A stretch of DNA of 59,224 bases, the filler included, from Thelocarpon superellum (Eukaryota), in NCBI GenBank assembly GCA_026025795.1. It is 2 parts of 2 records of this genome, joined end to end, with 100 filler letters (N's around TTAATTAATTAA, not from the genome) between each part and the next. Parts side by side here need not be neighbours in the genome. Positions count along the whole stretch, not along the records: positions 1 to 29,611 come from JAPEUG010000217.1; 1 more part is not named here. One strand, written 5' to 3'. Every line of letters starts with the position of its first letter. Within the stretch, counting starts at the first letter, position 1. Below, one piece after another: positions 26,384 to 29,711 of this stretch. The position numbers were made by a program, and so were the translations under genes. The notes under the pieces were generated by a model. That model saw only the letters and a program-made list of their open reading frames with translations, did no database searches and had not been told where the DNA came from.

Positions 26384-27292
26384 GGTCGCCACCAGTCTCG
26401 CCGGAAGCTCACGCTCTCGCTCTCGCTCACGCTCACGAGATACGTTGGACGAGACGTTCGGAGGAGAGATGACACCGTTCAATGACGAGGACACATCTTG
26501 TGGGTTGGCGATGCGAAGGCACAAGGAGAATTACTGGCCACAGGAGGTGGCACGGTTGGTGACGATCACCAGAGTCAGGGGCTGTGGGAATGTTGCATCG
26601 ACTGGCTCAGGTCGACGCAGACGCTTGGTTGGTCTCTTGCTCCCGATATTGGTCCTTGGTCCTGGCATCGAATTCACGCGAACCGACAGTGGTTTTCGGT
26701 CTTTTACATCTCACCTGCGCACCTCGCACGCACCCACGCACCCGACCCACCGGTCGTTCCTGCGGGATTCATCTCTTTTTCTTGAGACCCCTGCACGGCC
26801 TGACGACTGTCCCATGCGTGGCGAGCTATCCGTGCCCAGATTTGCCGACAGGGCATGATCGTCCGTCGCTTCGAGATACCTGACGCCACCAGCAAGCCGG
26901 GGGTATACTTTCCCGCCCCGGCTGTCCACATTTCGACCATCCGTCCGACACTCGTCCGCACATCTTTAGCTCCACCATTGAACAGTAGACCCTTCTTGTG
27001 CTTAAACGCACCTCATACTACTTTGAATACGTAAGCTGATATAAGGCATACTCCAGAGCACCTACTCGATGAACAGGGCGCCCTTCATACGCCGTGCGTG
27101 TGTGCTGGGTATGAGGGTGTTTGGTTCTGGCCACGGGGAGGTGTGCGCGGAGCGGTTTCCGTTCGTTGTGAGACATCTACAATCGGAATACAAGGACCAA
27201 GGACTTCTACAGGTCAGCGAAGATATGCTTCGACCGGAACGTCTAACAGCGCATGGTAGCCATTTTTCCGTCCTTTTATCTTCCCCCCTACT

Positions 27293-29501
27293 TTATTCCT
27301 TTCGTCGCTTTCGAGGCTTGGATGCAATGACACTGGTCGATCCGTCATCTTGGCCCGCCTTGTCTAGACCCATCTCCCCGGCGACCAAAGTTGCCGCATC
27401 CCCATCGAGGTCGGACTCATCCTCTTCCGAATGGCTTGCATCCTCGTCAAGGTCGTCCTCATCGTCGAACCCCTCAAAGTCATCCTCGGCATCGTCAACC
27501 TCAGTCTGGTCATCGGCTGGCGGGGTATCGCGCTCTCGCTTCCGCTTCCGGCCCATTTCGCCCAGCCGACCTTCGCGGCCGTCGATTCCTTTTGGTTCGT
27601 CCCCATCAACCGCCGGCGGGGGCGTGAACCACGGAATCTTCCCGCGAAGGAAGTCATTCAACACCATTTTCGCTACGCCATCCACGTCCGCCTCGCCACC
27701 TCTCAGTAATCGACCGCCTTTCCGCGCCAGCTGTTCGAGAAACTCGGTGGCGGAGTGGAAATCCCGCATGTCGTAGGTACGCTCGATGTGATGCGGCTTA
27801 CACTTCCTTAGCACCGCGTCGATATATTGCTCGGGGTTCTGCACGTTCTCCACCCGCACCACTCCCCGTAGCAGGATGTCTTGCTCCGAGTCGGTCTGGT
27901 TGGGTGGCACCACGCCAGGACAGTCGATCAGGTAGATACGCTTCATGAGCGTGATGTATTGCCACACCTTGGTCTCGCCCGGGATGGGTGCGACGGTGCA
28001 GACCTTCTTCTTGCGCAGAGTATTGATGATGGACGACTTTCCCGTATTGGGATACCCAATGAAGCCCACGGAGATCTGCTTGCGGTCCGAGTGGAGGGAA
28101 GAGAATTGTCGGAGGAGTTGGATGAGCGATCCTTTGCCAAAGGAATTCGTGATGGACGCATGAAAGGCCAGGGTCGGATAATCTTTGGATAAGAAGCGGA
28201 CCCACGATGCCTGATGACGCCGTACGCCGAATCAGCCAACGGTTCATGGAGGGTTACTTGTGCCGGCAAGCGTGTACACCGCGCTACTATAAGTCCCACC
28301 ACGAGCCACTCGGAGAGCGGAAGTGGGTCTCAACTCAAGCATGGCGTTCCCGATCCCTAGAGGACCGAACACCAAGACGATGCCCAGTCGACTCCGGGTC
28401 ATGGATCCGAAGCGGCAGGATCGGCGTTGATATACCAAAGTCGTAACAGACGAGCCTTCCACTGAACAATGCGTCTGATGATGCAGGAAGGAGTCTTGAC
28501 TGAACGATGGGGCGGGGGGGGGGCAGCATTGCCCCGGCACGGCCGGGATAGAGACGGAGAATATGACTTACCGCTACGCCGGTCGGCACCAGGTCACACT
28601 TATTCAGCACAAAGATGAGATGCTTGTGTGCCGCTTCTTCCTGGATGTACTTTTCCACGCTGCGGCATCGCGTCCCCAGCGGGTCGCGCGCATCCAGTAC
28701 GTGGATGACGACGTCCGAGGAGTCGATGACCTTGTACAGCTCGTTCCAGATCCTCTTGCTCTGGCCTTTGGAGAAGATGGCTTCCCGCGCCAGGGAGAAG
28801 CCGCCGTCCGCTTCGGGTTCCCGATCGTCCGGCTGTGTCTCCGTCCCTGCATTCCCACTGAGCAACCGCTGCTGTTCTAACCGATCCTCGTACGTGTCAT
28901 GGTCCTTTTCTGTTTCGCCCACCAAATCCTCCAAGGAGCTGACGCCCAGCTTGACCCGCTTCCGTTGCGCCTTGGGGCCAAAGGTGGCGCCGAATGGGGA
29001 TGCTTCGACCGTCATCTTGGCTTGGTGCTGCTTCAGGCCGTTCTTGCCCTGCCCATCCCGGATCAAGCTCATCGGGAGCTTATTGGTCTTCAGCAGGACT
29101 TGATACGGATCCGACGCTCGCTCGGCCATGGCCTGGCGGAAGGAGTTCAGGGCATCTTGTGCGATGACGCGCGTATTGCCGAACCACTTGCGGTTGGGTT
29201 CGATGCGGGCCTTGGGCAGCTCGCGTGATTGGTACGAGGCGGCTTTGGTGATCTTCCCCGAGGCATTTCGCTGCGCCTTCCCCTCCTTGAACATGTGCAG
29301 CGTTTTTGCCTTTTTGGCATCGCTATCGCGCGGTCAGTCGTCGACCACATGGTGGGCGGATGGGCGGTCCAAGCCTCCCAGGCCCGATGGAGAGGTCACA
29401 TACCGATAGAAGTTTTCACCCTTGGTCTTGACGTTGGCCATGCCATCCGAGGATTTGCCCTGCCTCTCCTTACGGGAGGCTTCCTTCTTGCTGACCCCCA
29501 T
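27293..29501 (-). CDS. NOG2: Nucleolar GTP-binding protein 2 (circularly permuted GTPase)
   Basis: NGP1NT region KGENFYRDAKK and [67 protein letters not shown]. Introns 29403-29323 and 28571-28211. Confidence 0.97.
28270..28512 (-). ncRNA. snR191: Intronic box H/ACA snoRNA, snR191/U19 orthologue (guides two pseudouridines in LSU helix 69)
   Basis: Inside the 361-nt NOG2 intron. Hairpin 1 pockets AGUCA (28501-28497) and GUUAC (28447-28443), H box AUAUCA (28433-28428) 14 nt on. Hairpin 2 pockets GAGU (28336-28333) and UAGU (28289-28286), ACA (28275-28273) 14 nt on. Pockets are complementary to rRNA GUAAC-U-A-U-GACUC. Confidence 0.9.
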
Positions 29502-29611: not shown

Positions 29612-29711
29612 NNNNNNNNNNNNNNNNNNNNNNNNNNNNNNNNNNNNNNNNNNNNTTAATTAATTAANNNNNNNNNNNNNNNNNNNNNNNNNNNNNNNNN
29701 NNNNNNNNNNN
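29612..29711. other. Assembly gap with artificial linker (N44-TTAATTAATTAA-N44)
   Basis: Symmetric N runs around a 12-mer carrying stops in all six frames; total exactly 100 nt. Confidence 0.97.

Follow-up and report, generated by a model that had tools for sequence, protein, structure and literature searches.

The DNA analysed here is a stretch of 59,224 nucleotides (nt) from Thelocarpon superellum (the window), and the subject is an RNA element within the second intron of NOG2, a gene on its minus strand. The gene has three exons and a start codon at 29501-29499. It is assigned to NOG2 because it encodes NGP1NT and MMR_HSR1 domains and matches Protein Data Bank (PDB) chains named Nucleolar GTP-binding protein 2. 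On its sequence, fold, box spacing, family homology, covariation and conserved intron position, the intronic element is very probably the orthologue of snR191, a box H/ACA guide small nucleolar RNA (snoRNA) about 240 nt long, in which a Y-shaped central domain is set between two guide hairpins. The features of the locus are as follows; exon and intron bounds were read from the sequence.

29403..29323, minus strand: NOG2 intron 1, 81 nt, GTATGT...TAG.
28572..29322, minus strand: NOG2 exon 2, encoding the NGP1NT domain (PF08153, E 2.8e-53) and ending ...LVPTGVA.
28211..28571, minus strand: NOG2 intron 2, phase 0, 361 nt, GTAAGT...CAG.
28231..28235, minus strand: candidate branch-point motif CTGAT, 21 nt before the 3' splice site, read from sequence alone.
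27290..28210, minus strand: NOG2 exon 3, encoding the GTPase domain (Pfam PF01926, MMR_HSR1) and an acidic tail, with the stop codon.
28270..28514, minus strand: predicted snR191-family box H/ACA snoRNA, about 240-245 nt, 5' end approximate (Rfam RF01263, nhmmer, and half-models R1 and R2, described below).
28435..28510, minus strand: hairpin 1, with lower stem, pocket and upper stem (fold, compensatory change, half-model R1).
28497..28501, minus strand: hairpin 1 5' pocket strand AGUCA (sequence and alignment).
28443..28447, minus strand: hairpin 1 3' pocket strand GUUAC (sequence and alignment).
28428..28433, minus strand: H box AUAUCA (ANANNA), between hairpin 1 and the remainder of the RNA.
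28350..28424, minus strand: central Y-shaped domain, 75 nt, between the H box and hairpin 2 (minimum-energy fold; also in the Rfam consensus).
28276..28347, minus strand: hairpin 2, with lower stem, pocket and upper stem (fold, compensatory change, half-model R2).
28333..28336, minus strand: hairpin 2 5' pocket strand GAGU (sequence and alignment).
28286..28289, minus strand: hairpin 2 3' pocket strand UAGU (sequence and alignment).
28273..28275, minus strand: ACA box, 3 nt (CGC) before the predicted 3' end.

The 361-nt intron was found exactly where an earlier note on this DNA had placed it, with its GTAAGT...CAG borders on the minus strand. Exon 2 closes with ...CCGACCGGCGTAGCG at 28572, and the reading frame is continuous across the joined exons. 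Exon 3 matches the Nucleolar GTP-binding protein 2 chains of the PDB with E 5.8e-115, its start falling at residue 282 in the best of them and at 271 in chain 3jct_m. The CTGAT motif of the intron presumably agrees with the fungal branch-point consensus CTRAY. The earlier note had also described the introns of the window as mostly 45-80 nt long; the comparison made here is with one other intron only, the 81-nt first intron of the same gene. A heuristic scan of the window for introns recovered both NOG2 introns among 76 candidates with a median of 329.5 nt, and was set aside as too permissive in G+C-rich DNA. Two runs of 44 N (29612-29655 and 29668-29711) on either side of TTAATTAATTAA (29656-29667) lie some 110 nt before the NOG2 start codon. 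The arrangement suggests either masking or a linker placed where scaffolds were joined, with stops in all six frames, and the promoter region of NOG2 is therefore partly unreadable.

Each structural feature that the earlier note had described for the snoRNA (two hairpins, the pocket strands, the H box, the ACA and the two 14-nt spacings) was present at the place claimed. The RNA has the hairpin-hinge-hairpin-tail arrangement of box H/ACA snoRNAs: the hinge carries ANANNA, and the ACA of the tail is 3 nt from the 3' end. The upper stem of hairpin 1 consists of AGAC/GUCU plus CCUUCC/GGAAGG, and that of hairpin 2 includes CCCAC/GUGGG. The H box starts exactly 14 nt after the G of GUUAC and the ACA exactly 14 nt after the U of UAGU, so that in both hairpins the base of the pocket precedes its box by a distance within the 14-16 nt used to recognize such RNAs. 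Two composite patterns that describe these relations are each found once in the whole window, on both strands together, and in both cases at the snoRNA: GTCA-N35-65-GTTAC-N9-ANANNA, for which 0.04 occurrences are expected, and GAGT-N35-65-TAGT-N10-ACA, for which 0.28 are expected. Within the intron they occur in the right order.

The pockets and boxes are readily accommodated in the predicted fold. Forcing all of them open gives -85.2 kcal/mol, compared with a free minimum of -85.5, a cost of 0.3 kcal/mol, and hairpin 1 in isolation folds with an open pocket when no constraint is applied. RNAalifold applied to the alignment of hairpin 1 pairs two pocket nucleotides with each other; this is held to be an artefact of guide strands that are partly self-complementary. 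Directly 5' of the window snoRNA is a run of C residues (28516-28530, minus strand), and similar C-rich runs precede the element in at least two distant relatives, L047 and L075.

In E-value mode the entire Rfam snR191 model (RF01263, positions 1-273) aligns with 28514..28270 of the minus strand, with E 1.7e-5 in a 501-nt search and E 0.002 in the whole window, where two other matches are listed and both rank below it. In the Rfam alignment, the pocket strands of the window fall on the conserved GUCA/GUUAC and GAGU/UAGUA, and the branched central domain is included. The covariance-model check suggested in the earlier note thus came out in two parts: the match is full length and at the predicted place and strand, and its score, 31.5 bits, falls under the curated cut-off of 46. 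The gathering cut-off is an operational limit and not a biological feature. The window copy differs from the Rfam family in this score, in being rich in G+C (0.57), and in a GUCUU central hairpin loop where the Rfam consensus has a U-rich one. In human, U19 guides the two equivalent pseudouridines of 28S rRNA, and its host gene is non-coding and distinct from GNL2, the orthologue of NOG2. Rfam places U19/SNORA74 and snR191 in one clan, CL00043. No SNORA74 match was listed for the window in a scan that reports only the best among overlapping members of a clan, no separate SNORA74 search having been made.

The window copy was linked to accepted members of the family through two half-models built only from relatives that score above the Rfam cut-off, the window itself being excluded. 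Of these 33 relatives 31 were aligned, two identical duplicates having been dropped. Half-model R1 covers hairpin 1 and the H box (29 distinct sequences), and half-model R2 covers hairpin 2 and the ACA (30 distinct sequences). R1 finds 28513..28427 with 68.5 bits and E 5.3e-18, the next best match in the window scoring 10.9 bits. R2 finds 28349..28270 with 30.7 bits and E 8.8e-6, its only match in the window. These matches tie the sub-threshold copy of the window to accepted snR191 members, and homology to those members is found with R1, with R2, and through the nhmmer matches that connect the window to the same relatives.

The relatives were obtained by searching metagenome contigs with the downstream NOG2 exon, which gave 80 loci with 57-85% protein identity. 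With the 245 nt of the window as nhmmer query, 66 of the 80 loci match at E<10, 62 at E<0.01 and 55 at E<0.001. Every match is on the NOG2 strand and within 300 nt upstream of the same exon. The Rfam snR191 cut-off is passed at that place by 33 loci (8/20, 13/20, 6/20 and 6/20), and the element is detected by one method or the other (nhmmer E<0.01 or the Rfam cut-off) in 67. A low Rfam score is usual in this group, since the other 47 loci are also below the cut-off. Both exons are matched in 65 loci, and in 61 of these the exons are 291-459 nt apart at precisely the same codon boundary, so the intron position that characterizes snR191 is shared by the window and 61/65 of these loci. Fifty-nine of the 61 were detected by nhmmer or Rfam, and the other two (L047 and L075) have a full intron in which the pocket motifs are found by regular expression. 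The 13 loci missed by both methods comprise these two, seven contigs that end within about 340 nt of the exon (L046, L058, L061, L064, L067, L071 and L078), and four without the intron. A motif search upstream of all 80 exons found the patterns of both hairpins in 58 loci, of hairpin 2 only in 15, of hairpin 1 only in one, and of neither in six.

In the four intronless loci (L034, L044, L049 and L054) one NOG2 exon follows directly on the other at this very codon boundary. These contigs either derive from spliced transcripts or represent lineages in which the intron, and the snoRNA locus with it, has been lost. In L075 and L061 the 3' pocket strand of hairpin 1 reads GUUAG or GUUAA in place of GUUAC, and the pairing with the target, helix 69 (H69) of the large-subunit (LSU) rRNA, would therefore be one base pair (bp) shorter.

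Conservation was assessed in an alignment (A1) of the window and 33 of 48 non-identical, near-full-length nhmmer matches, 15 close variants having been left out by eye. GTTAC, GAGT, TAGT and GTCA are each invariant in all 34 rows, and AGTCA is present in 31. The 3' box is ACA in 30 rows and AUA in four. Positions 1 and 3 of the H box, and an A at position 7, are invariant in 34/34. The element, whose absence from related NOG2 introns would have spoken against the earlier note, is detected in 67/80 loci, and its pockets and boxes are invariant or nearly so in the aligned rows. At position 6 of the H box (A1 columns 90-96), 17 rows have A and 17 have G (for example AGAUUGA); the window, with AUAUCAA at 28433-28427, has A at both positions 6 and 7.

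Covariation was examined for the stated structure of 49 pairs in seven helices. In the alignment 80.0% of the cells pair, versus 39.7-48.1% when the partners are slid by 1-3 columns, and the covariation score is 0.372 versus 0.101-0.132 for the slid versions. None of 500 shuffles reaches any of the five measures. Changes on both sides of a pair (compensatory changes) are found in 40 of the 49 pairs, and covariation is present in all seven helices. Helices 1-3 of hairpin 1 are 83-93% paired, with compensatory change in 12 of 16 pairs; the corresponding counts are 13 of 14 in helices 4 and 5 of the central domain and 15 of 19 in helices 6-7 of hairpin 2. RNAalifold by itself proposes 30 pairs, 22 of which show compensatory change. 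The departures of the window from the consensus are themselves compensatory: C-G replaces U-A at pairs 204-288 and 213-281, and U-A is found at 220-275. The hairpin loop of the central domain, C-GUCUU-G, is near-invariant (xCGTCTTGx in 27/34 rows, A1 columns 169-177), and its stem covaries in 5/6 pairs.

The known counterpart of this element is snR191 of Saccharomyces cerevisiae, which has the same host gene and the same intron-encoded arrangement. The window matches its family model over the full length, the extra central domain included, and has the same pocket letters. As the earlier note had stated, the yeast RNA is encoded within the NOG2 intron and directs the formation of Psi2258 and Psi2260 in H69, which is confirmed in parts of PMC8476143, PMC9351541 and bioRxiv 10.1101/2024.02.02.578723. 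According to Badis et al. 2003 as cited in a passage of PMC8476143, loss of snR191 removes the two H69 pseudouridines, a result that concerns yeast only. The target of hairpin 1 of snR191 (called HACA_42) is kept at least in Dikarya in an excerpt of PMC5824354.

Pairing of the window RNA was examined with GGGAGTAACTATGACTCTCTT, which is printed as animal 28S sequence beside the R2 insertion site (PMC3774820). The hairpin 1 pocket is complementary to GUAAC/UGACU (5 + 5 bp) around the first U of ACUAUG in this animal string, and the hairpin 2 pocket is complementary to ACUA/ACUC (4 + 4 bp) around the second U of the same ACUAUG. H69 of fungi should read the same as GGGAGTAACTATGACTCTCTT, and the H69 sequence predicted as the target of both hairpins is ...GUAACUAUGACUC.... 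Viral contigs that contain a 15-mer of H69 taken from the earlier note were also collected as possible stray rDNA (41 loci); Rfam found no rRNA and only tRNAs in the 20 of them that were scanned, and the matches are attributed to chance. A search for U6 sequences in three viral records and 14 control genomes gave no match.

By analogy with yeast, the expression, processing and both targets of the snoRNA can be predicted. It would be transcribed within the NOG2 pre-mRNA. Box H/ACA snoRNAs are stable RNAs bound by Cbf5, Nhp2, Nop10 and Gar1, and in the window RNA these core proteins would associate with both hairpins and with the H and ACA boxes. Once the intron is spliced out and debranched, exonucleases would trim it to the protected RNA, with the exosome making the 3' end, as parts of PMC9351541 describe for yeast. 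The particle would then pair with H69 of the large-subunit pre-rRNA, hairpin 1 (GUUAC and AGUCA) bracketing the first U of ACUAUG and hairpin 2 (UAGU and GAGU) the second. The bound pseudouridine synthase would convert both uridines, the equivalents of yeast Psi2258 and Psi2260. Confidence in the hairpin 2 target is somewhat lower than in the identity of the RNA as snR191.

Several observations weigh against the window RNA being a working snR191 with these two targets. The default Rfam scan of the window does not report it, and its score under the snR191 model is below the cut-off. Taken whole, the RNA does not exceed shuffled sequence in stability (z = -0.80, with 44 of 200 shuffles folding at least as well), so that fold energy is weak as evidence. 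Hairpin 2 scores far below hairpin 1 in the half-models and offers only 4 + 4 bp to H69, and the pairing was checked on the animal 28S string. For hairpin 2, moreover, an excerpt of PMC5824354 predicts U6-85, and not the 25S site, across a broad range of Pezizomycotina. A relic of snR191, decaying and no longer the source of a working guide RNA, would explain the sub-threshold score, and it would fit the divergence of hairpin 2, which is the most divergent part of the RNA (30.7 bits under the model built from the relatives) and in which the 3' pocket flank of the window, AUAGUAGC, is unique (1/34 rows). Decay is very improbable, because the four pocket strands, both boxes and both 14-nt spacings are intact, the departures of the window from the consensus are compensatory, and 47/80 related loci score under the Rfam cut-off in the same way. 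The unexceptional fold energy could also be taken to mean that the resemblance is due to chance, or that the intron holds a conserved element of another kind, such as a regulator of NOG2 splicing or expression, and no guide RNA. This is disfavoured, and extremely improbable, given the E-values of the two independent models (5.3e-18 and 8.8e-6), the covariation seen in every one of the seven helices, conservation concentrated on exactly the guide and box nucleotides, and motif patterns that are unique in the window.

A different question is what hairpin 2 of an snR191 orthologue would modify. It might guide U6 small nuclear RNA (alignment position U6-85) instead of, or besides, the second H69 uridine, as the prediction for Pezizomycotina and the short duplex with H69 would allow; the same source, in the part cited, predicts the yeast hairpin 2 site only in Saccharomycotina and Taphrina. 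This appears unlikely. GAGU and UAGU are invariant in 34/34 rows and have the same letters as the yeast-based Rfam consensus GAGUuGAG...UAGUA, so the capacity to pair with H69 is unchanged, and the sequences argue that hairpin 2 retains it. In 4/34 rows the 3' strand reads UAGUUAY, which lengthens the pairing to GUAACUA of H69, and the placement of the window in Pezizomycotina is itself a guess. Quite unlikely, too, is a function of the RNA beyond the two H69 guides, whether by a U6 target gained or added by hairpin 2 or by the central Y-shaped domain acting as a third module. If true, the domain might serve, for example, to dock a protein or to dock the RNA on the pre-60S particle, and a third module would account for the roughly 75-100 nt by which the RNA exceeds a minimal H/ACA guide.

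Features of this kind, an snR191 in a NOG2 intron, are already known. Descriptions of the family across fungi are given in parts of PMC5824354 (as HACA_42, with a different hairpin 2 target, U6-85, predicted in Pezizomycotina) and of PMC8476143 (as NOG2-intron snoRNAs), and that picture is reproduced by the 80 metagenomic loci. In the passages cited, PMC8476143 reports that the position of the NOG2 intron is conserved in all eight intron-poor fungi studied, that 72% of fungal species have kept it and that a box H/ACA snoRNA (snR191 in yeast) is encoded there, and proposes functional coordination or co-expression of NOG2 and the guide. Deletion of the yeast NOG2 intron lowered fitness in work on synthetic chromosome XIV (bioRxiv 10.1101/2022.07.22.501046, in the part cited). 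The proposal in the earlier note that the pairing of host and snoRNA is conserved in this lineage is therefore correct, and it had already been published for fungi in the cited parts of PMC8476143 and PMC5824354. Its remark that protein-centred annotation would miss the snoRNA is also borne out, and the default Rfam scan misses it as well.

What is new is a practical detail: the window copy and 47/80 relatives lie under the Rfam cut-off, and pipelines for filamentous-fungus genomes will therefore routinely omit this guide. The RNA left out is the guide for the two most conserved rRNA pseudouridines, and its importance is mostly for annotation. The window copy alone raises no new question. It adds one more case of the published pattern in which the NOG2 intron is kept because of snR191, linking the gene of a pre-60S GTPase to a guide for modification of the 60S subunit.

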